From: Minisyncoccota bacterium
GTDB taxonomy: Bacteria; Patescibacteriota; Minisyncoccia; Phycocordibacterales; UBA9973
Direction of reading: 5' to 3'
NCBI GenBank assembly: GCA_025453495.1
Contig: JALOQM010000001.1
Span: 155,161-219,160, forward strand
Length of the DNA: 64,000 bases
Made by a program: the position numbers and the translations under genes. A model generated the notes under the pieces. It worked only from the letters and a program-made list of their open reading frames with translations, ran no database searches and was not told the DNA's origin. Shown one piece after another: positions 15,680 through 37,048 of the stretch (the first letter of the stretch is position 1; each line of letters starts with the position of its first letter).

Positions 15680-16096
15680 TTAAAATTCGCGATATCTTGC
15701 GTTTCCCGGATGTCCGTACAGATGGATCAGTAATTCCTTATCTGAACCAAAATGTCCTTCAGTTAAGCTAACTTCTGACGTCTTTAAATCTGCTATGATC
15801 TTCTCTAGAACGATATGCGCATCTTTCGATACAGCAAGATTATTTGAGAGGTGAGCAAATGGACAAAGGAACACATTGTTATGTTTGGTGTCTTTACAGA
15901 ATTTAAGGATTTCCTGAGCAAGTTTAGAGGCCTTTTCAGGAGTATCACCCTTCTCAACCGTGATGAATACTAGAATACAATCATGAGAGGACTGCTTCTC
16001 ATCTAAAATATCTCCATACACAATATCTTTAGGACGAGTCGAGAGACCCGTGATAACGGCACCAAAATCTTTACAGTGAAACAAAATTGATCTCAT
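15680..16096 (-). CDS. Hypothetical protein (138 aa)
   Basis: An ORF between two repeats; no motif I can assign with confidence. Confidence 0.35.
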   Translation of the reverse strand: MRSILFHCKDFGAVITGLSTRPKDIVYGDILDEKQSSHDCILVFITVEKGDTPEKASKLAQEILKFCKDTKHNNVFLCPFAHLSNNLAVSKDAHIVLEKIIADLKTSEVSLTEGHFGSDKELLIHLYGHPGNARYREF

Positions 16097-16253: not shown

Positions 16254-17015
16254 TTATTGCATAAAATCACCAAACTTCACGATATCAGCTTTTGAGCCAA
16301 GAATATGAATCTTTTCTGGTGCTACTGTTAATTGACCGAAGGGTATATTTTCTACTCCAAATTTATTTACATAATTTTCAAGAAAAAAATCTCTTTCAGT
16401 TTCATTTTCCAGCTTAGCAATAACTTCTTCCTTAGAGAGTTTAGTATTTTTTAAGATTTCATTCAGACCTTGATTTTCAATATTTTCCCTCATTTTTTCT
16501 AATTGTTCAAATGAAAGTTTCTTGCCATCTTTATAACTATTTACATCGTAAAGTATTTGCAATAAAGCATCCTTGCCTTCCTTATACACTGATGATATAT
16601 CACTATGATTAATGCTTCCATCTTCAACAATTTGAATATTTCTCGTATTAACTAATACTGGAATTAATACTTTACCGTCTGATTCATAAGCATCATTCCC
16701 ATATGCGTTATATTTTCTTGCAAAAAATACAGCATTTCTTATAGAACAACCTTCTTTTTCTTTTGAGAAGCCATTAATTAATATGTTTTGAAGATTTTTA
16801 GCATCTGTTCCATGATATACAATATCTTTTATCTTGCTTTCAGGAAAAACAGTATCTAAGTATTCAGAATATTGTTCTTTAGTACCAATCTCAGCAAGTT
16901 CAGGATGTTGTTCAAATACGAAATCAACACCTTCTTTAATTTGAAGTTTCTCGATTTTGTTTTCGCCTGAATGCACATTTTCTATTTTTGGAATATTTTG
17001 AGGGAATCCTTCCAT
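16254..17015 (-). CDS. Hypothetical protein (253 aa)
   Basis: ORF with a Glu/Lys-rich C-terminal half; first gene of the same-strand array. Confidence 0.4.
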   Translation of the reverse strand: MEGFPQNIPKIENVHSGENKIEKLQIKEGVDFVFEQHPELAEIGTKEQYSEYLDTVFPESKIKDIVYHGTDAKNLQNILINGFSKEKEGCSIRNAVFFARKYNAYGNDAYESDGKVLIPVLVNTRNIQIVEDGSINHSDISSVYKEGKDALLQILYDVNSYKDGKKLSFEQLEKMRENIENQGLNEILKNTKLSKEEVIAKLENETERDFFLENYVNKFGVENIPFGQLTVAPEKIHILGSKADIVKFGDFMQ

Positions 17016-17039: not shown

Positions 17040-17205
17040 TTTTCTAAGTAATCGGGTCGATCTACTCTCATAAGCCTATGAATCACTCCGATACTTAGTT
17101 CTTTTGGCGGGCTACTCGGGTATGGTACCCCGACCGTCAACCCCAGTAAAGCTTTTCTGACGTTTCCGAATCGACCCGGGCGATGTTTGCGGGTCGGGGT
17201 CACCT
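17040..17205. repeat. Intergenic repeat, A-type start plus module C with an 8-bp inverted repeat
   Basis: AATCGGGTCGATC...GGCGGGCTACTCGGGTATGGTACCCCGACCGTCAACCCCAGTAAAGCTTTTCTGAC...GAATCGACCCGGGCGATGTTTGCGGGTCGGGGTC; CCCCGACC and GGTCGGGG flank about 45 nt. Confidence 0.6.
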
Positions 17206-17266
17206 TTTTGAAAATGAGACTTAGGCACAGATTTTCCCCGGATCAAATGCCAACAAATGCCAATTT

Positions 17267-18016
17267 TTGAGATATAATCAGGGCATGACAGTTGGCGAAT
17301 TGGTATATCTGGAAGCACTTAAGAATGGATACAAACCCAAACTTCCCGAGGGCGTTATTTCAACGTTACAAAAGACATTGGAATCATTTCAGAGGGTCTC
17401 CGAAGATATGCGCGGACCAATACAGATGGCAGCTCAAATGGCTGAGCGCATGCAACCGCAGATAGAAACCACGAGAAAGATGGCGTTTCCTAGAATGGCT
17501 GAGTTTAGTGAATCCATTTCTAGAATCTCTTCCCTCTATGACAAAGAGGAAGAATTCGTCATCCCCGCATTTACACGACCGATTCAAGAAGTACGAATCG
17601 TGAACCCCGAGGATATCGCTATAACATCGACCAAGAGTGAGAGAGATTTTGTAATTGCCTCATATCCTCTTCCGAAGAACGCGGTATGGGAATCCCTCGA
17701 CATCCAGTTCATCGATGGGCATTTCGTTAAGGTTTCGTATCCGAACTTGGAATCAAAGAAGTTCAATTATAAGGATATGGGCTTCGTGAACATGAAGACG
17801 ACGAACCCCGATCTGAAATGGAGACTCCTCTACGCAATTGCAGAAAACGACGGAGCTTTAACTACCACGAAATGGGATAGAGGGTTCGGAAGGAACGTAA
17901 AATACGAACTCAACGAGGGACTCAAGCGATTCTTCGGTATGGCGACGAACCCCATTCCTCACTACACCAAGAGAGATGGCTACAAGCCGCTATTTTCTAT
18001 CAGACGCGAAAGATAG
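17267..18016 (+). CDS. Hypothetical protein (249 aa)
   Basis: ORF with a TATAAT-like -10 just upstream (GAGATATAATCAGGGC ATG). Confidence 0.4.
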   Translation: MRYNQGMTVGELVYLEALKNGYKPKLPEGVISTLQKTLESFQRVSEDMRGPIQMAAQMAERMQPQIETTRKMAFPRMAEFSESISRISSLYDKEEEFVIPAFTRPIQEVRIVNPEDIAITSTKSERDFVIASYPLPKNAVWESLDIQFIDGHFVKVSYPNLESKKFNYKDMGFVNMKTTNPDLKWRLLYAIAENDGALTTTKWDRGFGRNVKYELNEGLKRFFGMATNPIPHYTKRDGYKPLFSIRRER

Positions 18017-18024
18017 TCATTTGA

Positions 18025-18160
18025 TTTGCAATGACGAATAAAAGACTTTCTGTCCATACAGGCAGAAGGTCTTTTATTTTATGGCCTATTCCGTCATTCA
18101 CACTCGCTCAATGAAAATAAATTGTCATTTTGTCATTCAATGACGAGTAGATATAGGAGA
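18025..18160. promoter_or_regulatory. Cluster of AATGACG / CGTCATT repeats including a GTCATTCAATGAC palindrome (candidate operator) upstream of the ParB-methyltransferase operon
   Basis: gcAATGACGaat, cCGTCATTcac, tGTCATTttGTCATTcAATGACgag within about 130 bp. Confidence 0.4.
18041..18080 (+). terminator. Rho-independent terminator after 17267..18016
   Basis: AAAGACTTTCTG-TCCATACAGG-CAGAAGGTCTTT followed by TATTTT. Confidence 0.55.
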
Positions 18161-18190
18161 GTTTAATAAAACCCTCTCCTCAATCAACAC

Positions 18191-19486
18191 ATGGCAAAAG
18201 ACAAGATCACATGGTCGCCCGCCACTCGCAGGCTGGTAGACCTCACCAAGAACGGATACAATCCACGCAAGCTAAGCGAGAACGAACGCAGGGATTTGGA
18301 GAAGTCCGTACAAGAATTCGGCACGGTCGTCCCGATAATCCTCAACATCGGCACGCGCGCCAACACCATCATTGGCGGCGAGCAACGCGTTAAAGTATAC
18401 GCCAATCTTGGCATCGACGAAGTCGAGTGCATGGTGCCATCCCGCGAGCTGACGCTCGACGAGGAGCGCGAACTCAATCTCCGCCTTAACAAGAATACCG
18501 GCTCGTGGGACGAGGAACTCCTCAAGGACTTCGACATGAGCGTGCTTCTTGGTGTCGGCTTCGGTGACGACGAGCTTCAGAACCTCTTTGACGATGTCGA
18601 CGTAGTCGATGACGACTACAATCTCGAGAAAGCACTCAAGGAGACGATCACACCGAAAGTGAAATCGGGAGAAATCTGGGAACTCGGCAAACACCGGTTG
18701 CTTGTCGGCGACTCGACCGACGGCGAATCGGTACAGAAGCTCATGGCGGGAGACTTGGCAGACGTCGTCTACTGCGATAGCCCGTACAACATCGGCCTCG
18801 ACTACTCCAAGGGAGTCAGCAATAAAGAAAAATACCAAGGTTCATATTCCAGCAAGGACGACTCCAAGAAAGACAGCGACTTCATGACCTTCTTGGACAA
18901 GAGCATGGATGTCGCGAAATCGGTCAGCAAGAAAGATGCCCACTTCTTCTACTGGTGCGATTCTTCATACGTCGGAATGGTGCAGAGCTTGTATGGCAAG
19001 CACAAGATAGATGCGAAGCGCGTCTGTCTCTGGATCAAGAACAACCAAAACCCGACGCACAAGATCGCCTTCAACAAAGTGTACGAGCCATGCGTGTATG
19101 GCACGATCGGCAAGCCGTACCTGAACACAGGAATGCACAATGCCAACGAGATACTTAATCAGGAAGTGACGACTGGCAATCAAGTCCATGACGAGATACT
19201 CGACATGATCGATATCTGGATCGAGAAGCGCGACAGTGCCCAGTCATATCAGCACCCGACACAGAAACCCGTAACCCTCAACGAGAAGCCACTCAAGCGA
19301 TGCAGCGCACCGCTCCACATTGTCTTTTCCGGATTTGCCGGAAGCGGCAGTGACCTGATCGCCTGCGAGGAACTCGGTCGTGCGTGGCGCGGAGTCGAGA
19401 AGGATCTCATATTCGCAACCATTGTGATCGACCGATGGGAGAAATTTACCAACCAGAAAGCAGTGAAAATCCATGAAGGTAACTAA
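18191..19486 (+). CDS. ParB-like nuclease N-terminal domain fused to an N4/N6 DNA methyltransferase (beta-class)
   Basis: 431 aa; N-terminal ParB/Srx-like segment (...GYNPRKLSENERRDLEKSVQEFG...); methyltransferase motif IV DSPYN, HPTQKP, and motif I FAGSGS; 55% GC versus about 40% in flanking DNA. Confidence 0.75.
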   Translation: MAKDKITWSPATRRLVDLTKNGYNPRKLSENERRDLEKSVQEFGTVVPIILNIGTRANTIIGGEQRVKVYANLGIDEVECMVPSRELTLDEERELNLRLNKNTGSWDEELLKDFDMSVLLGVGFGDDELQNLFDDVDVVDDDYNLEKALKETITPKVKSGEIWELGKHRLLVGDSTDGESVQKLMAGDLADVVYCDSPYNIGLDYSKGVSNKEKYQGSYSSKDDSKKDSDFMTFLDKSMDVAKSVSKKDAHFFYWCDSSYVGMVQSLYGKHKIDAKRVCLWIKNNQNPTHKIAFNKVYEPCVYGTIGKPYLNTGMHNANEILNQEVTTGNQVHDEILDMIDIWIEKRDSAQSYQHPTQKPVTLNEKPLKRCSAPLHIVFSGFAGSGSDLIACEELGRAWRGVEKDLIFATIVIDRWEKFTNQKAVKIHEGN

Positions 19487-20222
19487 CGGAGACATCTTCA
19501 AAGTCGGCGACCACATCATCGCCTGCGGCGACTCGCTCGACAGAGCATTCGTCGGCAAGGTCATCGGTCATAACAAGGTGCGAGCGGTCGTCAGTGATCC
19601 TCCCTATGGGATTGCGTATGTCGAGAACAAGCAGGGATTGGCGAAGATCAGCGCGGATGAAACGAAGGTAATCGCCAACGACCATCTCCAGAGTGAGGAG
19701 GAATACGAGAACTTCACGCGCGGATATCTCGGCGCGGTCATTCCGTACCTTACGGAATACAACGCCGTGTATATCTTCAATGCTGATGCAATGTTCCCGA
19801 GTCTTCGCGCAGGCATGAAAGTGGCGGGCTTCTACTACAGCCAGATGATCATCTGGCTCAAGAACCAGCCCGTCATGAGTCGCAAGGACTACTTGGCAAT
19901 GTACGAACTCATCGCCTACGGCTGGTTCGGCAAGCACAAGATGGAGCGATCAAAGGCGCGGAATGTGATCTACCATCCAAGACCGACAAAATCGAGACTG
20001 CACCCGACGCAAAAGCCGGTGGGACTTCTGCGGAAGATCATTCCGAACTCCACGAAAGTCGGCGACGTCGTCTACGATCCCTTCCTCGGAAGCGGATCAA
20101 CTGCCGTTGCCTGTGAGCACTTAGGTCGAAAGTGCATCGGCATCGAACTTGATGAGGCGTATGTGGCAATTGCGCTCAAGCGGCTCGAGAAGCTCACTGG
20201 CGAAAAGGCTGTGAAGGTATAA
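19473..20222 (+). CDS. DNA methyltransferase (N6-adenine/N4-cytosine, beta-class)
   Basis: 249 aa; SDPPYG (motif IV), HPTQKP, FLGSGST (motif I); overlaps the upstream gene by 14 nt. Confidence 0.8.
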   Translation: MKVTNGDIFKVGDHIIACGDSLDRAFVGKVIGHNKVRAVVSDPPYGIAYVENKQGLAKISADETKVIANDHLQSEEEYENFTRGYLGAVIPYLTEYNAVYIFNADAMFPSLRAGMKVAGFYYSQMIIWLKNQPVMSRKDYLAMYELIAYGWFGKHKMERSKARNVIYHPRPTKSRLHPTQKPVGLLRKIIPNSTKVGDVVYDPFLGSGSTAVACEHLGRKCIGIELDEAYVAIALKRLEKLTGEKAVKV

Positions 20223-20226
20223 CCGT

Positions 20227-20601
20227 ATGCAGGGAGACGATTTTTCCAAGGATCCGTACAAGAAGCAGGTCTACGAAACCTACGCTCTTTGGAAGTCCCT
20301 CCCGTCATTTCTCAAAGGACAGCCGAGAGTCGCGCTTGAGAAGTTTGGCATTGAAGAAGAAGCGGTGTTTGAGCTGCTCTCGATAAAGACACAGCTTGAT
20401 TTCTCAAAGCGATACAACGTCGATACGGGCACGCTCAGTGACTGGAACAAGCGACTTGAAAAAGACGGACTTTCCAAAGACCTGAATGCATGGGCGCGCA
20501 AGCTCACGCCGAACGTCATCTTCGCTCTCTACAAGAACATCATCAAAGGCGGCCGGGCGCATGAAGTGCGAGCGTGGTTTGAGATCGTAGAACATCACTA
20601 A
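20227..20601 (+). CDS. Hypothetical protein (124 aa), translationally coupled
   Basis: Starts 5 nt after the methyltransferase stop; no recognisable motif. Confidence 0.4.
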   Translation: MQGDDFSKDPYKKQVYETYALWKSLPSFLKGQPRVALEKFGIEEEAVFELLSIKTQLDFSKRYNVDTGTLSDWNKRLEKDGLSKDLNAWARKLTPNVIFALYKNIIKGGRAHEVRAWFEIVEHH

Positions 20602-20602
20602 C

Positions 20603-20800
20603 ATGGAACCAATACAACTTGAAGAAATAAATACCATTCTCTCGGACACCCTCCGCAAGGTCGTGAACCGGGAGATATCGCTCAAGCAAGCATCCATGAT
20701 TGCCAAGCTTGCGATGACGCTCTCGAGAAACATCGCCAATACCGAGCTGAAGGATCGGGTCGAATTCCTCGAAAGCATGCTGCAAAAAACACGCATATGA
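20603..20800 (+). CDS. Hypothetical small protein (65 aa)
   Basis: Coupled start/stop with both neighbours. Confidence 0.35.
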   Translation: MEPIQLEEINTILSDTLRKVVNREISLKQASMIAKLAMTLSRNIANTELKDRVEFLESMLQKTRI

Positions 20801-22284
20801 AAAATCTGAATAACATTATTAAGAGATCGAACCTGACGCCGCTTGAGCGAGTTACCATGCTTGTCCATAACGGAGAGCATAGGCAGAAAACGGGTAAAGA
20901 TATGCTCTCGGAAGCAGAACTCAACACCCTCACCCAAGGATGGGCGGCTCGGCTCGGGCAAGCGAATGAATACAATAAATACTTGGAGATTGCTAAGCTT
21001 GAGAACTCGATGCGGATCGATGCGACGATGTTCTCATACCGCGCGGAGCTATCCTTGGTCAGGCATCAGCGATTGCTTTCGTACTGCCTGACCGAGCCGG
21101 AGCGAATGAAAAAATTGATCAATGACGACATAATGGATGGACTCGAGGAAGAAGAGTGTTTGCGGTTCGCGCTCGCTCACACATATCTCGAGTACGGCTC
21201 TGTGTTGCACCTTTTCACTTTCTTCAATCTCCCGAGAGAGATACGAGAGGATCTCGCTCTTTTGGATGACTCTGTTGCGTACAGCAATCAATATCTAGGT
21301 GATGAAGTACAGCTTTATGAAATGTTCAATGCCAGAAAGGTCAATAATGAAGACAAAGATACACTCGTCGACATCATCTTCTCGCGCATATACTACGAAG
21401 GCATCAACAAAATGCGCGGTGAAGGCACTGAGCGGGACGCTTTTATCCTTGGTGGCTACTTTGCGGAATTTCCGCTGAGCGAAGCGATATACAAAACTGC
21501 TCGTGATCTAGGTATCAAGTGTAAGAACCGGGATGAGGAGGAAATATTGGATGATATTGAGTCGTATGCCAAGGAAAAAGCCGTGACTATGGAGCATCTG
21601 ATCAAGGAATCACTGCGCTCGTGGCTTGATGATGGACTATTCACTAAGCAGTTTGCGCCAATCTTCATGAATGGTGGTTTCGATACAGTAAACGGCATTA
21701 CCAGGAAGAACCACAAAAAACTGTTTGAGATTTGGTATGCGGAGCTAGAAAAATCCAAGAGATATTTCAATACTCTTTTCCGTATGCAGAAACTTAAACG
21801 AGAAGAAGCAGAAATAACCGTCCTTGGAGAAACAAAAACTGTAGAGAAACTCACTGGGGAAAGTTTGTATACATGCCAAGAGGATTTGGAATTTGTACGA
21901 GAATACAAAAAGCAAGTCTATATGATTCTGCCGTTTTCAAATCTCGCTTTGTTTATTGAGAAGCATACCAAGCCAATCCAGAAGTACACGACGCTCTGTC
22001 AGTTTAGGAAGCTCGGGAAGAGAGCATCGGATACCTTTGATGCTAATTTCACGGAAGAATATGACAAGCTTATTGAGTCGTATCGGGAAGAAATGACGCT
22101 TCTCAATCACGAACTTGCGAAGTTGACCGATGTGGCAACTGAACATCTATCTGCAAAAGCCGAGGAAGATTTCAGATGCGCTATTCAGATCTGGAACGGC
22201 AGTTTTCGTTTTGATCTCAGAGAAGCCGACGACAAAGCCGACATTATTGAGAAGTATGAGAGGGATTTCAGGAAGGTTATGTAG
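20797..22284 (+). CDS. Hypothetical protein (495 aa), last gene of the methyltransferase operon
   Basis: ATGA overlap with the upstream ORF; no Walker A or other motif identified. Confidence 0.45.
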   Translation: MKNLNNIIKRSNLTPLERVTMLVHNGEHRQKTGKDMLSEAELNTLTQGWAARLGQANEYNKYLEIAKLENSMRIDATMFSYRAELSLVRHQRLLSYCLTEPERMKKLINDDIMDGLEEEECLRFALAHTYLEYGSVLHLFTFFNLPREIREDLALLDDSVAYSNQYLGDEVQLYEMFNARKVNNEDKDTLVDIIFSRIYYEGINKMRGEGTERDAFILGGYFAEFPLSEAIYKTARDLGIKCKNRDEEEILDDIESYAKEKAVTMEHLIKESLRSWLDDGLFTKQFAPIFMNGGFDTVNGITRKNHKKLFEIWYAELEKSKRYFNTLFRMQKLKREEAEITVLGETKTVEKLTGESLYTCQEDLEFVREYKKQVYMILPFSNLALFIEKHTKPIQKYTTLCQFRKLGKRASDTFDANFTEEYDKLIESYREEMTLLNHELAKLTDVATEHLSAKAEEDFRCAIQIWNGSFRFDLREADDKADIIEKYERDFRKVM

Positions 22285-22295
22285 AATCCAGATTC

Positions 22296-22715
22296 TTATC
22301 CAATTACAATATTTTCTCCATTACCAAATTCCATTTCTTTATACATAATCTCGCCTGATTCATTCTTCTTATAAGGAAGTGTGGCGGAAATTACTTTATT
22401 TTCAGCATCCTCCAGATGAATAGAAATTGCACCATCAGTATTTCCTGCATATAGATTCGCATTAAAAGCAATACCGAAAGCATGTAAATCATGTTCTTGC
22501 TTTTTTACTTGGAAACTCTGCATGAGAGAATCAATGACTTCTTTTGGGGTGGGATGTTTTTCTAAAAAATCATTTTCAACGGCAACTATTTCATCTTTTG
22601 AGTTTAAATACATACCGAACGGATAAAATTCACCATGTTGGATTAGCATTTTCTGAGCAAAAGGAACTAGAGCGTTTAGTAACTTATCAAGTTGTGTGCG
22701 TTCTTTTTCATTCAT
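22296..22715 (-). CDS. Candidate immunity protein for the RHS toxin
   Basis: 139-aa ORF overlapping the stop of the 2042-aa toxin gene by 4 nt, the typical toxin/immunity arrangement. Confidence 0.45.
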   Translation of the reverse strand: MNEKERTQLDKLLNALVPFAQKMLIQHGEFYPFGMYLNSKDEIVAVENDFLEKHPTPKEVIDSLMQSFQVKKQEHDLHAFGIAFNANLYAGNTDGAISIHLEDAENKVISATLPYKKNESGEIMYKEMEFGNGENIVIG

Positions 22716-22718
22716 GTT

Positions 22719-25700
22719 TTATTCACTTGTGCCAGAAAGGGCATTACCAATATTTTTCAATGTCGACTTTACACCTCCTAATGCGTTTTGCAAAGGGCCT
22801 GAGAGACGAGTATCCGGGCGAACGTGTAAATCAAGACTATAGTTTGCGTCTTTCGCATAACTTACAAAATCTTTCATTTGGTTTGTGTAATTCAGACGTG
22901 CAACATTTTTAACTTCCATGAGAGATTTTTTTGAGTGATCCAATCCATCGGGTATACGATAGCTAGCAGTTCCAGTAGCGGATTCTATTCTTTCAGTATT
23001 TTTTACAATACCGCTGGCAAGTTCGCCCGCTCTTCCTTTCGCTGCATTTTCGGCAATATCACCTAATACTTTACCTTTTGGCACTTCTCCTGCGGTAACA
23101 GCGCCAAGTATTGCCATAGGATAGTTTCCTTGCTTTGCATCAGTAATAGCTTGAGAAAGTCCGTATTGGCCAACAGGCGTTGTAAGTGATTGCAAGAATG
23201 ATGTAATTTGTGGAGCATTCATTGCGATATACGCCGCAGCAAAAATAAGTTCTCCTGCAAATTTACCACTTGCATCGCTCATCGTAATCGGATTATTCCT
23301 TCCGTATGAATAGCTGTTCAGTGACTGCGGATCGCTCAGGATACTCGTCATATCCCTGCCCGACAGTGCTTTTGTCGGTTTTTCGTCACCAATAGTTAAA
23401 AATACCGGATCCTGAGAAATAAACTTCCCAACATTCCCCTTGTAGTAACGCGCATTCAAGTAATCGAGTCCTGTATCGTTGTCATGAATCTGCCCCACAT
23501 ACTTTCTCTGTTCATTATACGCCCCAGACGAGATGCGGGATTCGCCGAATGGGTAATAATCGAGTTGCTGAGAAATTGCACCTGAGGCGTCAGTGACGGC
23601 GGTAGTTGAACCGAGGTGATCGGTATGGATATAATACGGCGTCACTGTGACCGTCGGATTAGTAACAGTTTCGATCGTGGCGACAAGGGTGCTTCCTGCA
23701 TAGACTTGCTTGGTCTTCTTCGTACCGTCATCGTTGTAATACTTGTTCGGGTATGAGATGTCAGTCGTGCCTGTAACATAGCGGACGCGGTTACCTTCGT
23801 GGTCGTACCAGTAGTTTGCGGTCACTGAGCCGTCAGTACTCGAAACAAGCTGATCGCGGTAGTTCCAGGTATGCGTGAACGTGCCGTCTGACGTCAGATT
23901 GCCGTCATTGTCGTACGTGCGAGTAATACTGTTAATTTTTGTCGCAGCATGCGGATTCGCATACCCGGTGCCGGCATAGACGTATGCGCCCGCTGGACCA
24001 GAGAGCAGATTGCCGAGCGCATCGTAAGCGAATGAATGCGTGTAGTCACCGCCGCTTGCCGTGCCGGTAATGACAGCGTCAGTCAGACGATAGAGTGCGT
24101 CATATGAATACGTAGCGGTCTTTGCAGTATCAGTATCGGATGCATCATCAAGTTCGGTGATATTGCCGACCGGATCATACACATATGCGAAATCCTGCAC
24201 ATGACGGGTCGAATTCGTCGTCAAACGATTGGTTAGGCGGTAGAGCGCTGAAGCAGCATAGGTGTTCATCGTCGTCACGCCGTTCGCATCATTCTGCGTC
24301 TGGACCTGATCCGTCGGACTGTAGTCGAAGTTAGTAATGAGCGCAGTGAACGTGCGCGCAGACGGTTCCCTACGATCAACTGATTCGAGCAAACCGGCAG
24401 TATTGTAGGTGTAGCGAATCTCGGACATATCGGGATAGACGACTGAGGATATATTCCCCTGTCGATCGTAGAACGTGGACGTCGTATAGGTGTTTCCGTT
24501 GATGACCTTGATTTCGTTGACGACCGTGCCTCTCGAATTGTAGAGGTAGGATGTGTCCGCTCCGAGAAGCATGGTCACTGAGCAGAGTTTGCCCGTACCA
24601 TTCGTGCAGCTTGAGTACGAATACGCAATATCCGTGTCGGTGGTTGCAGTGTTGTCTTCCGAAGTGACCTGATTGACGTCGTTATAGGCGTAGTTTGTCG
24701 TCAGTGCGTTCGGACTTACTGTCTGAATAATGTTTCCTGCATCGTCATACGTATATGTCCATATGCCATAGGTTGCATCAGACACAGCGTGCGTGTCTTG
24801 CGCAGTCAGACGACGATCGAGGCCGTCATACGTGAAATTGCGGACGTTCCCGAGCGCATCGGTTATCTTCGTAAGTTTGCCGTTCAAATTCCATTCGTAG
24901 TTCGTGGTATAAGCGCTTGCAGTCGCATAGAATTCGTCGACAGCGGACAAGTTCTCATATGCGTCGTGATAATAACGCTTCATGTTTCCTGCTGGATCAG
25001 TGACAGTGGTCATCCAGTCGTCGTAGGCATTCGTCGTCGTACCAACTGCGTTCGTCGATGTGAGTACGCGACCAATTGGGTCATATGCGTACGTAGTGTA
25101 GAGCGCCGTAGTGGTTGTCGGTGATGTACGAGCAGTACCCGTGCTTGTATAGCGGAGTGATTCTTTCAAGGTCTTGCCGCGAGCATCATATGCCTTATCG
25201 CTCACGTTGAAAGTATTTGATGCTTCCGCTTCTTTGCGCTCCTGGATCAGGCGACCGAGGCCGTCGAAGTACTGATAGGTATCTGCCGTTGTCGAGGTGT
25301 CGAGATAGTCGGTGCGCTGTACTTTTACCGCACCGGAAGTGTCGGTATATGCATATGCCGTTTTTGCAACTGGAGAATACGGTGAAGTACTATCGGGAAT
25401 TTTTTCAGTGAGCACGCGATCAAGGCCGTCATAAACAGTTTGGTAGACGAAGCTGTTCTGATCGGTCACCTGCTTCGGCTTGCCGAGCGAGTAGTCATAG
25501 ACATACTGCGTCGTATGTGAGAGCGGGTCGGTAACAGTTGTTGGGTAGAGATTATAGGTATCGTATGAATACGAGGTTACCTTTCCACGCGGATCGGTAT
25601 CAGAAGTGACAAGACCATATGAGTTATACGCTTTCTGACTATTAATGTAGGTTGTCGACGCTTTCCAATCTTCAACCTTAGTCTGATTACCTTTGTTTAC

Positions 25701-28700
25701 CGATCCATATGAAAGCGTATCGTAATAGTATTTCGACTCTTTGACGGTGGTGGAAGATGCGTCAGTCACTGTGCTGATCTTTGGCACCACCACTCGGGTC
25801 GTCGTGTTTGCCGCATACACATTTGTCGTGGTGCGCTTGTCGGAACCGGTATCAGTGAATGAGCCGTCTGATGCCACTGCATTTACCCTACCCCATTCGG
25901 TCTTCGTCAGGAGCGAGCCGTCCGTGTTGTCATAGGTATATTCGGTCGCAGTATCGGCATGATCTGAATCGCCATCATACGTCAGCACAGTCTGGCGCGC
26001 GAGCTTCACGAAATCGTGGTCAGTGCCGATGTTGTAGTGATCCCACTTATTGACCGTCAGGCGATAGAGATTGTTCGAGCTGTCACGTTCTTCGACACGG
26101 TACGGCTGACCTATTTTTGCAGGGATATCGTTGTATTCACCGTTTGATGTATCAGTGCCATTACCCTGGTGGTAAAAGGTCTTCGTGACATTGCCGACTT
26201 CATCGGTTGTCGTGACGATATTGAAGCCAGCGAGCGTTCTATGTCCGTCTGAGTAGTACTGATACTTGCCGTCCTGATACGAGTACTGTCTCGTTCCGGT
26301 CGTGCCGAATGCGTCGTTCGTCGTGATGTCTTTGACGACTGTTATGGACTGGGACGGACTTCGGGTTATCGGATTCTTGTCATTAATAGGCTGTTCCTTA
26401 TATGTAATGGACATCGAGCCGCCCGCAGGAGCAGTAATGGTTGAAAGATAATCGGATTTTGAACCGGTATTGAGCCAGACGGCATTTGGGTTCGTGATGT
26501 TTGTACTGTTGTTATAGGCAAATATCCAGTCTGGTAGTCCGTCGTTATTTAGATCAGAAAGTCTTGTGTCATAATCAAATCCTACCTGATTTCCATTTGG
26601 ATAGGTTGGCATGGTCCAGCTTGCAAGTAGCCAACCTGTCCCAGTACTAAGCCAAACCTTGTTAGGATTGATAGTGTTTGTGTTGTTGTTATAAGCATTT
26701 ATCCAATCTGGCAGATTATCTCCATTAATATCTGTAAGCTGGGTATCGTAGGCAAATCCGACATGATTACCATTTGTGTATGTAGGCATGGTCCAAGAAA
26801 CTGCTGTCCACCCAATTCCTGTATTCAGCCAGACAGTATTTGGACTGGCTGCTGTTGGGGAATTGTTGTCATATCCATGAATAAAGTCAACAAGACCATC
26901 GGCGTTTACGTCAATAAGTTTGTTCGTATAATGAAATCCAACCTGATTGCCTGTTAGATAAGTCGGCATCGTCCAACTTGCTGATGTCCAGCCAGAGCCG
27001 GTATTCAACCATACTGCATTCGGATTCGTGGTACTCGTATTATTATTAAAGGCATAAATAAAATCTGGAAGAATATCTCCGTTTATATCCACGAGTTGCG
27101 TGTTTGTATGAAACCCGACCTGATTGCCGCTTGGATATAGCGGCATGTTCCACGATGCGTTCGACCAGCCCGATCCAGTGTTAAGCCAGACCGTATTTGG
27201 GTTTACTGTGCTTGTATTGTTGTTGTAAGCATAGATCCAGTCAGGTAAACCATCTCCATTGAGATCGATCAACTGCGTATTTACTGTATGAAAACCTACC
27301 TGGTTACCACTTGGATAAGTCGGTATAGTCCATGATGCTGATGACCAACCCGATCCATTATTGAGCCAGACCGCATTCGGATTCGCGGTGCTTGTATTGT
27401 TATTATAAGCATAGATCCAATCGGGTAGACCATCGCCATTGAGATCAATCAACTGGGTATTCAAAGTATGAAAGCCCACTTGCCCGCCAGTTGGAAATGT
27501 CGGAAACGTCCATGACGCGAGCGACCAGCCAGATCCGGTATTAAGCCACACAGCGTTTGGATTCGTGGTGCTCGTATTGTTATTGAGCGCATACACGAAG
27601 TCCGGCAAATTATCACCGTTTACATCCACAAGCTGCGTTGCGGAAGCGAACCCTACTTGTCGGAGGTCCGGATAGACAGGCATCGTCCATGACGCGAGCG
27701 ACCATTCATCATCCACAGTCTGATAATCGAATGACATCGCCGGGAGTACCGTCGGCGTGCCGCTTTCGTCATAACCCGTTTCGGTAATTGAAGAAAGGAG
27801 CGAACGATTCTGGTTGTGTCCAGGTAGGTATACAAGGTCGTACTTGCGAGTATTTGTACCGTTAATTTTTGCAACAATGCTCGTAACAAGCGAAGCCGGA
27901 GCGACTGAGAAAGCAGGATTATAGACAGTCACGACATCGGGGCGCGAGCCTAACGTAAAGTCGATTTCGAAAATTCCGTCAGTGGTTCCAAAACCAGTGT
28001 AAAAAATCTTCGATGGATAAATCTGCCCTGCGCTTTTGGTATATTCATAGCGGACGAAGTTATCATTCGTATCGCGCGTCTCTTCAAGCATCCACTTATA
28101 GATATTTCCCGAGTTGTCTTGGCGAGCTTGGGCGTTTGCACCGAAGGTATATTTCACACCCTTTTTATCGGTTACCACCCATCCGTTGGAGACGCGTTCG
28201 TATCGCAAGAAATCTCCCTTTTCAGAACGAGGTGCGTAAAGATTTGATCCGAGCGGAACAAGCTCCCCAGAGAGAGATGACGAAAACACATCGCCTGTCG
28301 TATAGAGGTCTTCCGTACCGGTGCGATTGACGCGCTCGATGTATGGAATATTGACGGACCAGCCGTAGCCGACGACAGAGTCGTTAACTTGATTCTCGCT
28401 ATTGTACATAAGCGAGAGATCAGGCGTCATGTCATTTCTGCCTGGTGGAACCTGAATCTTGTAGGTATGGACGAATGCCCCTGTCAGGTTGTCGATTTCA
28501 GGAGAAAGCAATCCTTTTGAATCCTGCGGCGGAAGCGGATCAGGATCTACTTCTGGCGCTTGAGGGGCTGGCGGCTCTATCGGCGGAGCTGCTTGCTGGT
28601 TTTCTTCAGAAACCTGAGTTTCAGTTTCTTCGCTAACGGTTGGCGTCTCAGTCTGTACTTCTGGCTCAGGAGTTATAACAGTTTCCTGAGTTGCTTCCGT

Positions 28701-28847
28701 ATTCGCTGTTTCTTCAGCGAATACGGTCAGGACAGGAGAAAAAAAGATTGAAAATACAAGAACGCATACCGCCAGCTTCCTAAAAAGACCGGATGCTGAT
28801 AATGGGTTTTTTGCGATATGCATATATTGTTTTTCTTGTTTTAACAA
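22719..28847 (-). CDS. Giant secreted SpvB-domain / FG-GAP beta-propeller / RHS (YD-repeat) polymorphic toxin (Tc-toxin TcB-TcC-like fusion) with a variable C-terminal tip
   Basis: 2042 aa. Signal peptide, then a Pro/Glu-rich linker, then an SpvB-like region (...GYGWSVNIPYIERVNRTGTEDLYTTGDVF...). About eight repeats of VDxNGDxLPDxxYAYNNNTSTxNPNAVWLNTGSGW (FG-GAP-like). Many YD repeats (YTYDALGN, YAYDPIGR, FTYDGLDRR, YTYDDAGN...). An RHS-core-like DYYPFGESR...YYKGNVGKFISQDP...NNPITMSDASGKF. A C-terminal domain of about 200 aa containing IPDGLDH...EVKNV, a possible PD-(D/E)xK motif. Confidence 0.85.
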   Translation of the reverse strand: MLKQEKQYMHIAKNPLSASGLFRKLAVCVLVFSIFFSPVLTVFAEETANTEATQETVITPEPEVQTETPTVSEETETQVSEENQQAAPPIEPPAPQAPEVDPDPLPPQDSKGLLSPEIDNLTGAFVHTYKIQVPPGRNDMTPDLSLMYNSENQVNDSVVGYGWSVNIPYIERVNRTGTEDLYTTGDVFSSSLSGELVPLGSNLYAPRSEKGDFLRYERVSNGWVVTDKKGVKYTFGANAQARQDNSGNIYKWMLEETRDTNDNFVRYEYTKSAGQIYPSKIFYTGFGTTDGIFEIDFTLGSRPDVVTVYNPAFSVAPASLVTSIVAKINGTNTRKYDLVYLPGHNQNRSLLSSITETGYDESGTPTVLPAMSFDYQTVDDEWSLASWTMPVYPDLRQVGFASATQLVDVNGDNLPDFVYALNNNTSTTNPNAVWLNTGSGWSLASWTFPTFPTGGQVGFHTLNTQLIDLNGDGLPDWIYAYNNNTSTANPNAVWLNNGSGWSSASWTIPTYPSGNQVGFHTVNTQLIDLNGDGLPDWIYAYNNNTSTVNPNTVWLNTGSGWSNASWNMPLYPSGNQVGFHTNTQLVDINGDILPDFIYAFNNNTSTTNPNAVWLNTGSGWTSASWTMPTYLTGNQVGFHYTNKLIDVNADGLVDFIHGYDNNSPTAASPNTVWLNTGIGWTAVSWTMPTYTNGNHVGFAYDTQLTDINGDNLPDWINAYNNNTNTINPNKVWLSTGTGWLLASWTMPTYPNGNQVGFDYDTRLSDLNNDGLPDWIFAYNNSTNITNPNAVWLNTGSKSDYLSTITAPAGGSMSITYKEQPINDKNPITRSPSQSITVVKDITTNDAFGTTGTRQYSYQDGKYQYYSDGHRTLAGFNIVTTTDEVGNVTKTFYHQGNGTDTSNGEYNDIPAKIGQPYRVEERDSSNNLYRLTVNKWDHYNIGTDHDFVKLARQTVLTYDGDSDHADTATEYTYDNTDGSLLTKTEWGRVNAVASDGSFTDTGSDKRTTTNVYAANTTTRVVVPKISTVTDASSTTVKESKYYYDTLSYGSVNKGNQTKVEDWKASTTYINSQKAYNSYGLVTSDTDPRGKVTSYSYDTYNLYPTTVTDPLSHTTQYVYDYSLGKPKQVTDQNSFVYQTVYDGLDRVLTEKIPDSTSPYSPVAKTAYAYTDTSGAVKVQRTDYLDTSTTADTYQYFDGLGRLIQERKEAEASNTFNVSDKAYDARGKTLKESLRYTSTGTARTSPTTTTALYTTYAYDPIGRVLTSTNAVGTTTNAYDDWMTTVTDPAGNMKRYYHDAYENLSAVDEFYATASAYTTNYEWNLNGKLTKITDALGNVRNFTYDGLDRRLTAQDTHAVSDATYGIWTYTYDDAGNIIQTVSPNALTTNYAYNDVNQVTSEDNTATTDTDIAYSYSSCTNGTGKLCSVTMLLGADTSYLYNSRGTVVNEIKVINGNTYTTSTFYDRQGNISSVVYPDMSEIRYTYNTAGLLESVDRREPSARTFTALITNFDYSPTDQVQTQNDANGVTTMNTYAASALYRLTNRLTTNSTRHVQDFAYVYDPVGNITELDDASDTDTAKTATYSYDALYRLTDAVITGTASGGDYTHSFAYDALGNLLSGPAGAYVYAGTGYANPHAATKINSITRTYDNDGNLTSDGTFTHTWNYRDQLVSSTDGSVTANYWYDHEGNRVRYVTGTTDISYPNKYYNDDGTKKTKQVYAGSTLVATIETVTNPTVTVTPYYIHTDHLGSTTAVTDASGAISQQLDYYPFGESRISSGAYNEQRKYVGQIHDNDTGLDYLNARYYKGNVGKFISQDPVFLTIGDEKPTKALSGRDMTSILSDPQSLNSYSYGRNNPITMSDASGKFAGELIFAAAYIAMNAPQITSFLQSLTTPVGQYGLSQAITDAKQGNYPMAILGAVTAGEVPKGKVLGDIAENAAKGRAGELASGIVKNTERIESATGTASYRIPDGLDHSKKSLMEVKNVARLNYTNQMKDFVSYAKDANYSLDLHVRPDTRLSGPLQNALGGVKSTLKNIGNALSGTSE

Positions 28848-28961
28848 TCTTAATAATATGACTTGATTCTATATGTTAGACGCCAAAAGTAAACTGATCA
28901 GTCGACTCGAGTATATACATAAGTTCTAAAGGAAAACTAAAGTTTATGTGAAGTCCGACTC

Positions 28962-29765
28962 TTATTTTTCCTCTGCCTTATTGAGTATCAGGGAAATCAT
29001 CGCGAGCGGAACCTCATAATCACGAAGTTCAAGAATATATGGCGTCTCCTTTCCATCCTTGAAAATATGGAGGCCGTCTGAGCGAAGCTCAAGCGAACCG
29101 ATCTTCTTAAACGGGAATGAGAACTGCTTGCGATAACCAAGATAGCCGACGCGCTGATTCGTGATATAGAACACGCCAGAATCCTCCTTGTCCATGATCT
29201 CCTTGGAGACGCTTTGTACGCCTATCGATCCGACGCGGTATCGCACGCCTTTCATGATCTTTATCGAACCAGTAAAGCCGCCGTAGTTCACGCGCGTGGT
29301 GACTTTCTTGCGCTTCATCATGTCTGCGGCAATAGCCCAATGAAGTACCTCGTCTTCTTTGAACACGACATTCAGTTCAGCTTGCGCGTTTTCGATTGTC
29401 GGCAATATGCCCTTGTCTACGAGCGCAAGCGTATAATACTTGTTGAAATTGTCTTGGTTGAAGGCGATGTCGCTTTTCGTGAGACTGAAATGGTTGAGCA
29501 ATTTCTCAAGCGCATTCTTTTCGTCATCAGTGATCCGCTTGTCTGAACCCATAGCGGTAAAAACAGAAGCGACCGAGGTCTTATGGATTGCTTTCACATC
29601 GTCATCAGACAAACCAAACTCCTTTTGCATTTCCATGAGTTTCTCGCTTTCATCGAAGGTCAGTTCACTATCGGCAAGGAACGCTGTCATTGACTCTTGA
29701 TACTTCTTGAGTCCATCCCGTTTCTTTAGGTACCGTTTAACAAATCCGGGTAGATGTAGTTTCAT
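28962..29765 (-). CDS. Hypothetical protein (267 aa) upstream of the RHS toxin gene on the same strand
   Basis: ORF; 3-nt gap to the upstream membrane protein gene. Confidence 0.4.
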   Translation of the reverse strand: MKLHLPGFVKRYLKKRDGLKKYQESMTAFLADSELTFDESEKLMEMQKEFGLSDDDVKAIHKTSVASVFTAMGSDKRITDDEKNALEKLLNHFSLTKSDIAFNQDNFNKYYTLALVDKGILPTIENAQAELNVVFKEDEVLHWAIAADMMKRKKVTTRVNYGGFTGSIKIMKGVRYRVGSIGVQSVSKEIMDKEDSGVFYITNQRVGYLGYRKQFSFPFKKIGSLELRSDGLHIFKDGKETPYILELRDYEVPLAMISLILNKAEEK

Positions 29766-29767
29766 GG

Positions 29768-30385
29768 CTAGTTTATCTCTTCAACCTTAACCTCCCAATT
29801 TATTCCGCTGATAACCCGGATGTAATAACGGCCCGGAGCGATATTGCGGTATGTTGTCTGTCCTTCTCCTTGTTCGGATCCTTCGGTTGAGATGGAAAGA
29901 CCAGGTCCAATATAGCCGCCGTTTTCCTTTTCTAGGCTTATGCTCGAGAAACTGCCGACTGTTGAACCGGTAGTCGTTGCAGTAACGCGTACTTTCTTGC
30001 CCGTGATATTGAAAGACTCGGAATCTTGATTGCCTTTGCCTTTGAGTGAATACACTTCCGTGAAGACTTCCTCTTGAGGTGCGGATTTTTCGCTCGTTCC
30101 AGATTGAGAATCAATTACTTGGCGGGCTTCATCTATTGAACCTGATACGATTAGGCCTCCAATGATGAGAATGGCCGCGATGACGAATCGCGCCATGCCG
30201 GAGAAATTGATCTTGAGATATTTCTTGGTGAGCGTGTTGACGATTGGCAATAAAATGACTCCGGCGATGACGACGGCGACATGACCACTCGCAAGACCTG
30301 CGATGATAGTAAGTACGCCAAGGACCCAGAGAACAATTGAACCTGCTGAGACTGATTTAACGGTCTCGTTGTTTTCGTTATGCAT
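29768..30385 (-). CDS. Hypothetical membrane protein (205 aa)
   Basis: Two to three N-terminal TM helices, then an S/T/G-rich extracellular segment. Confidence 0.4.
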   Translation of the reverse strand: MHNENNETVKSVSAGSIVLWVLGVLTIIAGLASGHVAVVIAGVILLPIVNTLTKKYLKINFSGMARFVIAAILIIGGLIVSGSIDEARQVIDSQSGTSEKSAPQEEVFTEVYSLKGKGNQDSESFNITGKKVRVTATTTGSTVGSFSSISLEKENGGYIGPGLSISTEGSEQGEGQTTYRNIAPGRYYIRVISGINWEVKVEEIN

Positions 30386-30708
30386 ATTTTTCTAGCGGGT
30401 TTTTAATTTGGCGGGAATAACAAAAGACTCCCCGCCATCGCGATGGAAACCTTTCGGCCCCACCCGTACCCGTTTCCAGGTACGACCCGCTAGAGTGACT
30501 CTGACGAGGAGTCTTTTATTCTCTAGCGGGATTTTCGACCATATCCTTGGCGCAAACCAAGGGGTTAGGTCTCCTATTAAGTTGTAAAGCGATTATACCC
30601 TTTTTATAGGGTCGTCGCATCCTAGCTCGGATTAGGGAGTTTGTGTAGCGTACTTACCAACAAAGTGGATTAAGCGGACTGGACTTCGTAGGCCTTCTGA
30701 GTCATCCA
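30386..30708. ncRNA. GC-rich highly structured intergenic region (candidate cis-regulatory RNA or ncRNA)
   Basis: Three copies of TCTAGCGGG (two direct, one inverted as ACCCGCTAGAG), giving two mutually exclusive 10-bp pairings, one followed by ATTTT. A further 10-bp pairing AAAAGACTCC/GGAGTCTTTT. Local hairpins GGCGGG..CCCGCC, GTACC..GGTAC, CCTTGG..CCAAGG. Much higher GC than the flanks. Confidence 0.4.
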
Positions 30709-31035
30709 TTGGGTGTGGATGATATCGAGGCGATCATAGACGCCGCCAAGCATTTCAAATACGAGGAAACCGAAACTGCCTATGCCTTTAATCGAATCTC
30801 GCAACTTGCTGACTCGAAATCAAATCTGAAACGAGCGATCAAAGAGCGCGTTCGGCTTTTGTATGCCGCGTATATCTCTTTGGCTTCCTTTATTCCCGAC
30901 GAGGATGTCGACTACATGCTTGGGTTATACGGAAGGCGTACACAAAAGCGATCCGCTAGAATTGTGGCGCGGGTGATGAAAGAGATGGAGGTGCTTGAAA
31001 AAGAAATTCGGAAGTTTAATCCTTTATCTAATTAA
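30709..31035 (+). CDS. Hypothetical protein (108 aa)
   Basis: ORF downstream of the structured region. Confidence 0.35.
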   Translation: MGVDDIEAIIDAAKHFKYEETETAYAFNRISQLADSKSNLKRAIKERVRLLYAAYISLASFIPDEDVDYMLGLYGRRTQKRSARIVARVMKEMEVLEKEIRKFNPLSN

Positions 31036-31060
31036 AATTTGAAATTAATACTCCTTCATT

Positions 31061-31945: not shown

Positions 31946-32169
31946 GTAAGTTGATCGCTTTAAGCATTCGCAAGGCAACTATATCATGCGTAGACAGGAC
32001 TAAAAAGACGATGGAATTTCTTGATTTTTAGGCATTTCGGTTACCAACAGCTACCACTCGGGACGCTCTGGACTCCTAAAAGGCATTGCGTCATTCATGT
32101 AGGTGTATGAACTATACACAAACACAAGCGCCATTAGGGACGACGGCCAAAGTAGTCGTTCCAATCAAA

Positions 32170-34420: not shown

Positions 34421-34425
34421 AGTTT

Positions 34426-35121: not shown

Positions 35122-35123
35122 AT

Positions 35124-36179: not shown

Positions 36180-36191
36180 ATAAAGTTAGTG

Positions 36192-36812: not shown

Positions 36813-36830
36813 GATACAAAGTGTATCATA
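36811..36830. promoter_or_regulatory. Perfect 7-3-7 palindrome TGATACA-AAG-TGTATCA overlapping the lexA start codon (candidate LexA box)
   Basis: Seen directly; TTGACT (-35-like) about 35 nt upstream on the coding strand. Confidence 0.4.
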
Positions 36831-36960
36831 CTGTATACTTAAAAGTCAATAACGTAAAAGAGCGACACTGATCGCTCTTTTTGCTACAACCATGAAGCCT
36901 TGTGGGTCGCGCTACCTCCTTAGGCAGTCGGGATACAAAACTAACAGGTTGTCAATGCGG

Positions 36961-37048
36961 AGGAGGTGAGATTCGAACTCACGGACCACGTAAATGGTCT
37001 CCTGTTTTCAAGACAGGTGCCTTCAACCACTCAGCCACTCCTCCGTAT
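36961..37048 (-). tRNA. tRNA-Ser (anticodon TGA), class II with long variable arm
   Basis: Minus strand GGAGGAGTGGCTGAGTGGTTGAAGGCACCTGTCTTGAAAACAGGAGACCATTTACGTGGTCCGTGAGTTCGAATCTCACCTCCTCCG. Confidence 0.85.

Follow-up and report, generated by a model that had tools for sequence, protein, structure and literature searches.

One question raised by a 64,000-nucleotide stretch of DNA from a Minisyncoccota bacterium (assembly GCA_025453495.1, contig JALOQM010000001.1; hereafter the window, in whose positions all coordinates are given) is what role is played by a compact operon of five genes, g1 to g5, that encodes two DNA methyltransferases and no restriction endonuclease to accompany them. A preliminary description had seen in this operon phage- or plasmid-derived cargo, perhaps an anti-restriction module or an uncharacterised methyltransferase-based system. 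Comparison with related loci and contigs (designated L001 and so on where they must be told apart) indicates that the operon is almost certainly the backbone of an integrative island, inserted at a tRNA-Ser gene and linked to a large serine recombinase. Carriage by a mobile element is thereby borne out and the notion of loose cargo is not, as the block is a conserved backbone with the real cargo lying downstream of it. The operon and the sequences immediately upstream of it are laid out as follows.

17285-18016, plus strand: g0, 243 amino acids (aa), in a variable slot ahead of g1 and part of the conserved arm
18013-18179, plus strand: g0-g1 intergenic control region with terminator hairpin, YGTCAT/ATGACR repeats, palindrome and hairpin
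18037-18078: terminator hairpin in the g0-g1 control region
18132-18144: 13-bp palindrome GTCATTCAATGAC, upstream of g1
18156-18179: hairpin directly before the g1 start codon
18191-19486, plus strand: g1, ParB/Srx N-terminal domain fused to a beta-class DNA methyltransferase, 431 aa
19473-20222, plus strand: g2, beta-class DNA methyltransferase, 249 aa
20227-20601, plus strand: g3, helix-turn-helix protein, apparently small-terminase-like, 124 aa
20603-20800, plus strand: g4, 65 aa, always between g3 and g5
20797-22284, plus strand: g5, almost wholly alpha-helical in its predicted model, 495 aa

The five open reading frames (ORFs) are co-directional and fill 18191-22284, with gaps of -14, +4, +1 and -4 nt at g1/g2, g2/g3, g3/g4 and g4/g5, just as the preliminary description had it. 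The unit is nonetheless larger than was then supposed, as g0 and a conserved non-coding stretch at 17107-17263 belong to the same arm as g1-g5. Only close relatives share g0, and distant islands carry unrelated genes in its slot. The GC content of 18025-22284 is 49.1%, against 41.8% outside the island, a contrast that is real and smaller than the 55% against 40% first estimated; by gene it reaches 52.7% in g1, peaks at 53.9% in g2, and falls through 50.4% in g3 and 48.0% in g4 to 44.5% in g5. Upstream of g1, the reported cluster of AATGACG/CGTCATT repeats is present together with the palindrome, with three copies of AATGACG in 116 bp (18030 and 18139 on the plus strand, 18092 on the minus strand); the whole 64 kb contains 13 copies, where 11 are expected. 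The repeats, the terminator hairpin and the hairpin before g1 are kept in close relatives, including a compensatory change (GGAGAG/CTCTCC versus GAAGAG/CTCTTC), and distant relatives have other AT-rich palindromes in place of the cluster.

A scan of GTDB with a g3 profile, using one genome per species, returned 65 loci, all from metagenome-assembled genomes (MAGs) of Patescibacteria, the candidate phyla radiation (CPR). Judged wherever the contig allows, g1-g5 are colinear in 61 of these, and every contig examined shows the same order of a variable gene, a ParB-methyltransferase of ~431 aa, a methyltransferase of ~250 aa, and proteins of ~125, ~65-70 and ~495 aa, with near-equal lengths and unrelated surroundings. 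Identity to the window copies declines together for g1-g4, from ~90% to ~60%, and more steeply for g5, from 63% to 25%. At the DNA level, similarity to other loci starts at ~17106, within non-coding DNA, and stops with g5, and 17106-22284 is ~77% identical to loci that have other flanks. In the loci examined the block is never seen outside an island context. One contig, CAYJED010000004.1, holds two full cores 21 kb apart (L038/L061), which points to tandem accretion. To date, all known members of the family come from CPR/Patescibacteria MAGs, most of which are labelled as Paceibacteria or relatives.

What bounds the block on its left, and what lies at the far end of the element to which it belongs, becomes apparent when the junctions of related loci are compared. 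The sites concerned are the following.

17048-17105, minus strand: degenerate P'-like arm just outside the left boundary, resembling the L008/L058 P' arm (..GTATCGGAGTG..GCGACCCGA.TAC)
17107-17131, minus strand: left end (P arm), GGGGTACCATACCCGAGTAGCCCGC in tRNA orientation, with the shared CCGC as candidate crossover
17107-17225, strand not assigned: conserved non-coding block (long-range inverted repeat 17127-17140 / 17187-17200, then a T-run)
17244-17263, plus strand: direct repeat, two copies of CAAATGCCAA, in the g0 promoter region just upstream of TTGAGATATAAT
17267-17278: TTGAGATATAAT, downstream of the CAAATGCCAA repeat
32040-32076, plus strand: motif GTTACCAAC-N13-GGGACGCTCTGGACTCC, then GCGTCATTCATG, conserved ahead of the recombinase gene
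32107-33438, plus strand: large serine recombinase of 443 aa (start codon ATG at 32107), ~10 kb downstream of the block
36856-36956, minus strand: right end, P' arm ATTGACAACCTGTTAG.. plus terminator, abutting the tRNA gene
36957-37044, minus strand: tRNA-Ser(tga), the target of integration, joined to the island through its 3' end ..CTCCGC

The island extends over 17107-36956 (19.85 kb), and the operon forms its left arm. Read in tRNA orientation, its junction on the far side is ...GGGTACCATACC-N8-CCGC followed by unrelated flank, an arrangement found in 17 loci, and on the tRNA side the tRNA sequence ...CTCCGC is followed by island sequence ATTGACAAC... (ATTGACAACCTGTTAG...). The right end abuts tRNA-Ser genes of several isoacceptors, namely tga in the window, L039 and L051, gga in L004, cga in L006, and gct in L008, L058 and L024; the gene in the window lies on the strand opposite to the operon. 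For instance, identity between L004 and L006 is 95.6% over a stretch of 12.84 kb that reaches exactly from the left arm to the tRNA, yet the two differ in their left flanks and in the tRNA-Ser gene occupied (gga and cga); in L024 a third isoacceptor gene (gct) is joined to the same P' arm. Shared ends, unrelated flanks and different tRNA-Ser isoacceptors are what marks a site-specific insertion, here into the 3' end of tRNA-Ser genes and with CCGC as the core held in common. An integrative element of the large-serine-recombinase type should have defined ends, and the island has them.

The block is also linked to a recombinase. The recombinase of the window has Resolvase, Recombinase and Zn_ribbon_recom domains, falls in the integrase family phrog_95, and is CcrB-like by its match to NCBIfam NF047343 (1.5e-35, far below the equivalog cutoff). 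In L004-L008 and L011 orthologues with 73-89% identity lie downstream of the block at a distance of 2-10 kb, also where the identity of g5 drops to 25-29%, and an orthologue is present downstream and on the same strand in 23 of the GTDB loci, counted within a 10-kb flank. Before the recombinase start, all loci have GTTACCAAC-N13-GGGACGCTCT(A/G)GACTC, then GCGTCAT(T/C)(C/A)ATG (32040-32100 in the window). This recombinase would integrate the island at tRNA-Ser. On a 1.9-kb contig, L013, an unoccupied-looking tRNA-Ser gene is found, the joined island ends are present as a single isolated copy, and the first part of the GTTACCAAC motif (positions 215-262) lies beside the tRNA-Ser without a recombinase gene, an arrangement that may be a decayed or miniature element.

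Near the left end lies the direct repeat CAAATGCCAA-CAAATGCCAA, which is better conserved than any other non-coding feature in this family of islands. It is unique in the window and, allowing two mismatches or fewer, is found upstream of the core in ~50 of 61 loci, distant variants included. In loci that have no g1, g2, g4 or g5, distant g3-like genes have a similar sequence, AAATGCCAAACATTGCCAA, across their start codon (L083, position 306; L084, 1125; L085, 9972). The possibility that CAAATGCCAA is a pac site held in common with phages was considered and rejected, as it is absent near the small-terminase gene of the phage contigs described below, bar a chance overlap with a start codon. Neither ARAGORN nor Rfam finds a tRNA or known RNA in the block at 17107-17225, and its T-arm-like look is better explained by resemblance of the P arm to the tRNA target. 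Just outside the boundary, the degenerate arm at 17048-17105 is, from its likeness to a P' arm, probably the remnant of an older island that had integrated in tandem.

If the operon is an island backbone, the next question is what its proteins contribute, and the two methyltransferases are the most readily identified of these. Profile libraries (Pfam, PHROGs, PADLOC and NCBIfam) were scanned with the operon proteins. Both g1 and g2 match N6_N4_Mtase, PF01555, at 3e-19 (70.2 bits) and 4e-34 (118.9 bits) respectively, with a cutoff of 26.7 bits; phrog_498 covers the full length of g1 (1e-84), and the methylase part of that family is matched by g2 (2e-63). The ParB_N domain of g1 is borderline in Pfam (PF02195, E 4.9e-6, 27.0 bits against a cutoff of 26.3) and is also matched by phrog_620 at 7e-24; its ParB/Srx motif is GGEQR, and GGEQR or GGHQR, motifs of the GxxR type, occur in 53 of 63 relatives. 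The fusion and the second methyltransferase stand as first described, and the motifs stand in part: g2 does have DPPY, g1 has DSPY (18776-18787, residues 196-199), and SPPY occurs in neither. Beta-class enzymes have motif IV, (D/S)PP(Y/F), N-terminal to motif I, FxGxG; g2 conforms, with DPPY and then FLGSGS, and g1 has DSPY and then FAGSGS. The catalytic motifs are intact across the methyltransferase family. Among 63 related copies of g1, motif IV is DPPY in 45, DPPF in 11 and DSPY in one, so that the window copy is atypical at the second position. Weak CcrM-like matches suggest that g2 is CcrM-like and of the N6-adenine type.

A type II restriction-modification system is recognised by a cognate endonuclease adjoining the methylase, and here there is none: g3 and g5 have no nuclease domain or fold, and g4, which was checked in the profile libraries only, gave no match there. 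The earlier statement that no endonuclease lies nearby is accordingly right for a restriction partner and wrong in the literal sense, as the gene of a secreted RHS toxin, whose C-terminus is a Tox-REase-7 domain, ends 434 nt downstream of the operon. Because they have no cognate nuclease, g1 and g2 are read as orphan or anti-restriction methylases. They would methylate the DNA of the island, and incidentally that of the host, so that the island survives restriction on entering a new cell, and the ParB/Srx domain probably helps to load g1 onto DNA. Protective methylation of this kind, by analogy rather likely, is the usual reading of ParB-methylase fusions and of orphan methylases on phages and plasmids, and an anti-defence role has been described for plasmid leading regions (PMC11541004). 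Anti-restriction thus remains the most likely role of the methyltransferases themselves, as had been proposed; the block as a whole is not a self-contained methyltransferase system, being always linked to the recombinase and the tRNA-Ser junctions.

The three downstream proteins are, as the preliminary description held, without recognisable motifs, and match nothing in any of the four libraries; in PADLOC no model is matched by g3-g5, the sole hit (Cas13d with g5, E 0.054) being no better than noise. More can be said of g3 from its relatives. It has 174 homologues, up to 92% identical, and its AlphaFold2 model (mean predicted local distance difference test score, pLDDT, 77) is helical and matches generic helix-turn-helix regulators only, with a weak Xre-like helix-turn-helix signature at residues 55-76 (E 0.38). 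A profile search of IMG/VR with g3 led to six contigs, one of which, L015, is a further copy of the island. In three distinct phage contigs (L016, L017/L018 and L020), homologues of 36-52% identity can be aligned over all of g3, and directly downstream of each is a large terminase gene (Terminase_3 / phrog_2), together with a gene of 670-735 aa in the portal position. Homology of g3 to a phage terminase-position protein is thereby established. Judged by gene position, that phage protein appears to be the small terminase (TerS), and g3 itself can be regarded as a TerS-like, C-terminally shortened relative, the phage homologues running 30-50 residues past the end of the island protein. The gene position that marks a TerS is held by the phage homologues and not by g3 itself, and g3 has no match to a described TerS sequence or structure family. 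In the phage contigs L018 and L019 the g3 homologue is preceded by methylase genes and a ParB-like domain.

A tblastn search with the large terminase and portal-position protein of those phages found no homologue in the window or the related loci, capsid genes not having been searched for. The preliminary description would have accepted a simple prophage fragment had the downstream genes matched ordinary phage structural or packaging proteins, and g3 does partly provide such a match. A simple prophage fragment nevertheless does not follow, because no homologue of the large terminase (TerL) or portal was found (capsid genes unsearched) and because the block is intact in 61 species genomes.

The partners of g3 are less easily placed. 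In the slot where the phages have their large terminase, the island has g4 and g5. The idea that g4 is the split-off C-terminal tail of a TerS was rejected, a profile of 21 g4 sequences showing no similarity to the phage tails. For g5, 61 homologues are found at 90% clustering and a profile finds 250 representatives at 50% clustering, those with names being annotated as hypothetical proteins only. Its model is confident and almost entirely alpha-helical, and has neither a structural nor a family match; no nuclease, ATPase or other enzymatic fold is seen in the predicted structure, and no catalytic-type residue is conserved across the family. With no such residue conserved, g5 is probably a structural or adaptor protein. 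Searches of INPHARED by tblastn with g5 or g3 gave no matches and g5 is absent from IMG/VR, the viral contigs being reached by the g3 profile only.

Taken as a whole, these results are best read, with moderate confidence, as the backbone of a CPR island that combines protective methylation with a TerS-like DNA-binding or packaging function, in the manner of a phage satellite. In satellites such as the Staphylococcus aureus pathogenicity islands (SaPI) or the PLE (elements that resemble phage-inducible chromosomal islands), the TerS of the satellite recruits the packaging motor of the helper phage. By the same logic, g3 would bind a specific site in island DNA, for which the CAAATGCCAA direct repeat and the YGTCAT operator cluster are candidates, and would either divert the packaging motor of a helper phage to the island, as in a phage-inducible chromosomal island (PICI) or a PLE, or block that motor; g4 and g5 would be non-enzymatic partners of g3, acting as adaptors or scaffolds. 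Packaging of the satellite type is the more tentative part of this reading, and somewhat short of an even chance. More speculative still, and in our view doubtful, is the proposal that these islands are the first recognised family of phage satellites or packaging parasites in CPR/Patescibacteria, with the g1-g5 operon as a new packaging-hijack or interference machine and the LOOT RNA described below as an island regulatory RNA.

Several observations weigh against the satellite-like reading. g4 and g5 are not found in the phage contigs, and the roles assigned to them are guesses. No replication module is recognised in the island of the window, a D5_N/DUF5906 primase-helicase being found only beside L010. 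The window copy of g1, with DSPY as its motif IV, may have reduced or altered activity. As for mobility, no excised circle or empty site was demonstrated, and excision is inferred, not shown. A search for empty sites using the flanking genes of the window against related loci gave nothing informative, and the predicted joined ends (P and P') had no matches in IMG/VR and matched three metagenome contigs. In L014 both ends of the window's island are adjacent; the P-P' junctions of L012 and L014 are, however, followed by a truncated recombinase remnant (L014 2800-3600), because of which they are probably tandem, partly decayed copies and not free circles. Finally, L082 (9971-13910) has a g3-like gene of 32% identity, a LOOT RNA, a gene for an Mrr-type nuclease and an orthologous serine recombinase of 61% identity, with no g1, g2, g4 or g5, and the company of this g3-like gene with a recombinase is also what one would expect if g3 served in regulation or excision.

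That last arrangement, with its LOOT RNA and without the remainder of the operon, also speaks for the strongest of the alternatives, which dispenses with phages altogether. Here the operon would be a housekeeping module of the island, in which g3 is a transcriptional regulator or recombination directionality factor acting on YGTCAT operators of g1 and the recombinase, g4 and g5 aid excision or maintenance, the methylases have anti-restriction or epigenetic functions, and movement is by natural transformation or a conjugative helper. The shared operator sites lend this some weight: CGTCATTCA/TGTCATTCA occurs at 18092 and 18131, upstream of g1, and at 32089, 10 nt before the recombinase ATG, and GCGTCATCAATG is kept upstream of the recombinase in other loci. 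Also in its favour, the g3 model matches generic helix-turn-helix regulators only, and g3 does not have the C-terminal tail of the phage proteins. Yet these three sites are three of four copies in the window, where 1.85 are expected, an excess that is not significant alone, and distant island variants keep YGTCAT before the recombinase and not before g1. Outside the islands, g3 has its nearest relatives in phages, where they hold the position of the small terminase. We regard a phage-free housekeeping module as improbable.

Two further alternatives, a defence system and a dead prophage fragment, are unlikely. In the former, the operon would act on its own in defence or addiction, in the way of a restriction-modification system, with g3 as controller (C) protein and g5, together with g4, as a new effector directed against unmethylated DNA or acting by abortive infection. 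Translational coupling and the order of two methylases, a helix-turn-helix protein, a small protein and a large one do resemble C-regulated restriction-modification operons, in keeping with the Xre-like signature in g3 and the palindromic operator upstream, and islands in general often carry addiction modules. Against this stand the confident g5 model with no enzymatic fold, the absence of a conserved catalytic-type residue, the want of any PADLOC model for g3-g5, the small-terminase position of g3 homologues in phages and the constant island context of the block, which together leave a defence system a poor candidate. A functionless, decayed prophage, in which the start of a late operon (methylases and small terminase) was left behind after deletion, is least likely, for the methylases and ParB-like domain upstream of the g3 homologue in L018 and L019, the truncation of g3 and a GC content unlike that of the host are outweighed by five intact ORFs with lengths and overlaps conserved in 61 species genomes and hundreds of metagenome proteins, by g3 identities of 57-92% that argue for purifying selection, by the absence of g4 and g5 from phages, by the defined ends and conserved recombinase that accompany the block, and by the lack of any large-terminase or portal homologue or, among the island genes scanned, of any head-and-packaging PHROG hit, no capsid query having been run.

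Compared to described elements, the islands most resemble PLE and PICI satellites in being small and in owing their integration to a recombinase, which in PLE is a large serine recombinase, in having their own small-terminase homologue without a large terminase or portal being found (capsid genes were not searched for), and in carrying genes harmful to competitors or phages. Among the features by which satellites are recognised, an integrase of its own and a TerS-like gene without TerL or portal homologues (capsid unsearched) are present, and a recognised replication module is not. The islands also differ in that helper, induction and packaging are not demonstrated, in that the TerS-like protein lacks the C-terminal tail, in having two methylases in the backbone and a CPR host, and in that searches by sequence and fold show no relationship of g4 and g5 to Cpm, Ppi, Rpp, TcaP or Sid. 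With the ParB-N::methyltransferase fusions of PHROG 498 and the orphan methylases of plasmids the operon shares carriage on a mobile element, absence of a cognate nuclease and a presumed self-protection against host restriction; unlike these, the island fusion is fixed in a coupled five-gene operon and has none of the ssb, ardA or psiB-type context of plasmid leading regions. Those type II restriction-modification operons that encode a controller protein and a pair of methylases also have two beta-class methylases, a small helix-turn-helix protein and an upstream palindromic operator, and differ in having the restriction endonuclease that the island operon lacks, its large downstream protein being without a nuclease fold.

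The tycheposons of Prochlorococcus target tRNA genes and carry cargo. The islands resemble elements such as these and SCCmec (staphylococcal cassette chromosome mec, with CcrAB/CcrC) in that the island recombinase is CcrB-like, in site-specific insertion at a conserved housekeeping locus, in the combination of a backbone with a variable cargo bay, and in tandem accretion at one site. Novel integrative elements of Prochlorococcus are the subject of bioRxiv 10.1101/2020.12.28.424599. Those elements differ in that the islands target the extreme 3' end of several tRNA-Ser isoacceptors, and in that g1-g5 and the LOOT RNA have no counterpart in them. A search of the full-text literature found no description of such an island in CPR/Patescibacteria, and the family is seemingly undescribed.

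Very little is known of mobile elements in CPR bacteria, a group that nevertheless accounts for a large share of bacterial diversity and whose tiny genomes are shaped by gene exchange. A widespread island family with precise ends provides a handle for annotating horizontal transfer in these genomes, and a recombinase with a simple tRNA-Ser target is a candidate tool for site-specific integration in organisms that are newly becoming genetically tractable. Two conserved families, g4 and g5, and a truncated TerS-like protein can now be tested in a defined setting, and the LOOT RNA gains a genomic context. Should the satellite interpretation be true, phage-satellite biology would extend to epibiotic ultra-small bacteria.

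The remainder of the island, between g5 and the tRNA gene, comprises the recombinase and the features below.

22296-28847, minus strand: cargo insertion, RHS toxin and putative immunity gene
22719-28847, minus strand: RHS/SpvB/FG-GAP polymorphic toxin with C-terminal Tox-REase-7, 2042 aa, ending 434 nt downstream of the operon
22296-22715, minus strand: putative immunity gene, 139 aa, downstream of the RHS toxin gene
28962-30385, minus strand: two semi-conserved island genes, 267 aa and 205 aa, convergent with g5
30446-30571, minus strand: LOOT RNA (RF03000), at the head of a leftward cargo operon
33419-36812, minus strand: tRNA-side cargo, with two metallo-beta-lactamase-fold proteins, a 231-aa protein and a LexA-type repressor
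36192-36812, minus strand: LexA-type repressor (LexA_DNA_bind and Peptidase_S24), near the tRNA-side end

From g5 to the recombinase the gene content varies among islands, and this stretch serves as a cargo bay for toxins and defence genes. In the window, the RHS cassette is seen to be an insertion because homologues of the 267-aa and 205-aa proteins directly follow g5 in several relatives. Elsewhere the cargo includes diversity-generating retroelement cassettes, with bAvd and a reverse transcriptase (L001 14768-16171, L002 8400-9803 and L007 13049-14449), a 1600-aa helicase-MTES protein (L001 and L010), a KAP NTPase (L011), and ResIII with a methylase (L007 and L015). On the tRNA side of the recombinase, L004 and L011 have copper-resistance genes. 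The LexA-type repressor of the window, the start of which is overlapped by a perfect inverted repeat, ATGATAC-N5-GTATCAT (36811-36829), is not conserved in the other islands examined, and could be an SOS-linked switch of the island or a captured host lexA.

Rfam places a LOOT RNA at the same position in 9 of 14 other loci tested. With a covariance model built from the island copies, it was found in 16 of the 61 core-carrying GTDB loci, in addition to the window, L002, L010 and L082, and in none of the related phage contigs. These copies lie on the minus strand downstream of g5, and where the recombinase is close by they are divergent from it (L027 and L079); two weak hits, in L026 and L050, are upstream of the core. 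In every case the strand is opposite to that of the core operon (other examples are L001 13036-13165, L024 6745-6869, L011 12622-12749 and L082 10745-10861), and in most loci the RNA heads the leftward cargo genes. Because it recurs in these islands, by Rfam and covariance model alike, and does not appear in the phage contigs, the LOOT RNA is part of this island family. We know of no function for this RNA. The main text of the motif survey that would be its source (PMC5737381) does not mention it.

Outside the island, to the left of its P arm, two genes on the minus strand may be mentioned. The first, at 16254-17015, encodes a 253-aa protein with a weak ADP-ribosyltransferase-like match (ART-PolyVal, E 0.002, below cutoff). 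The second, at 15680-16096, encodes a free-standing archaeal-type threonyl-tRNA-synthetase editing domain (PF08915, 7.5e-21).

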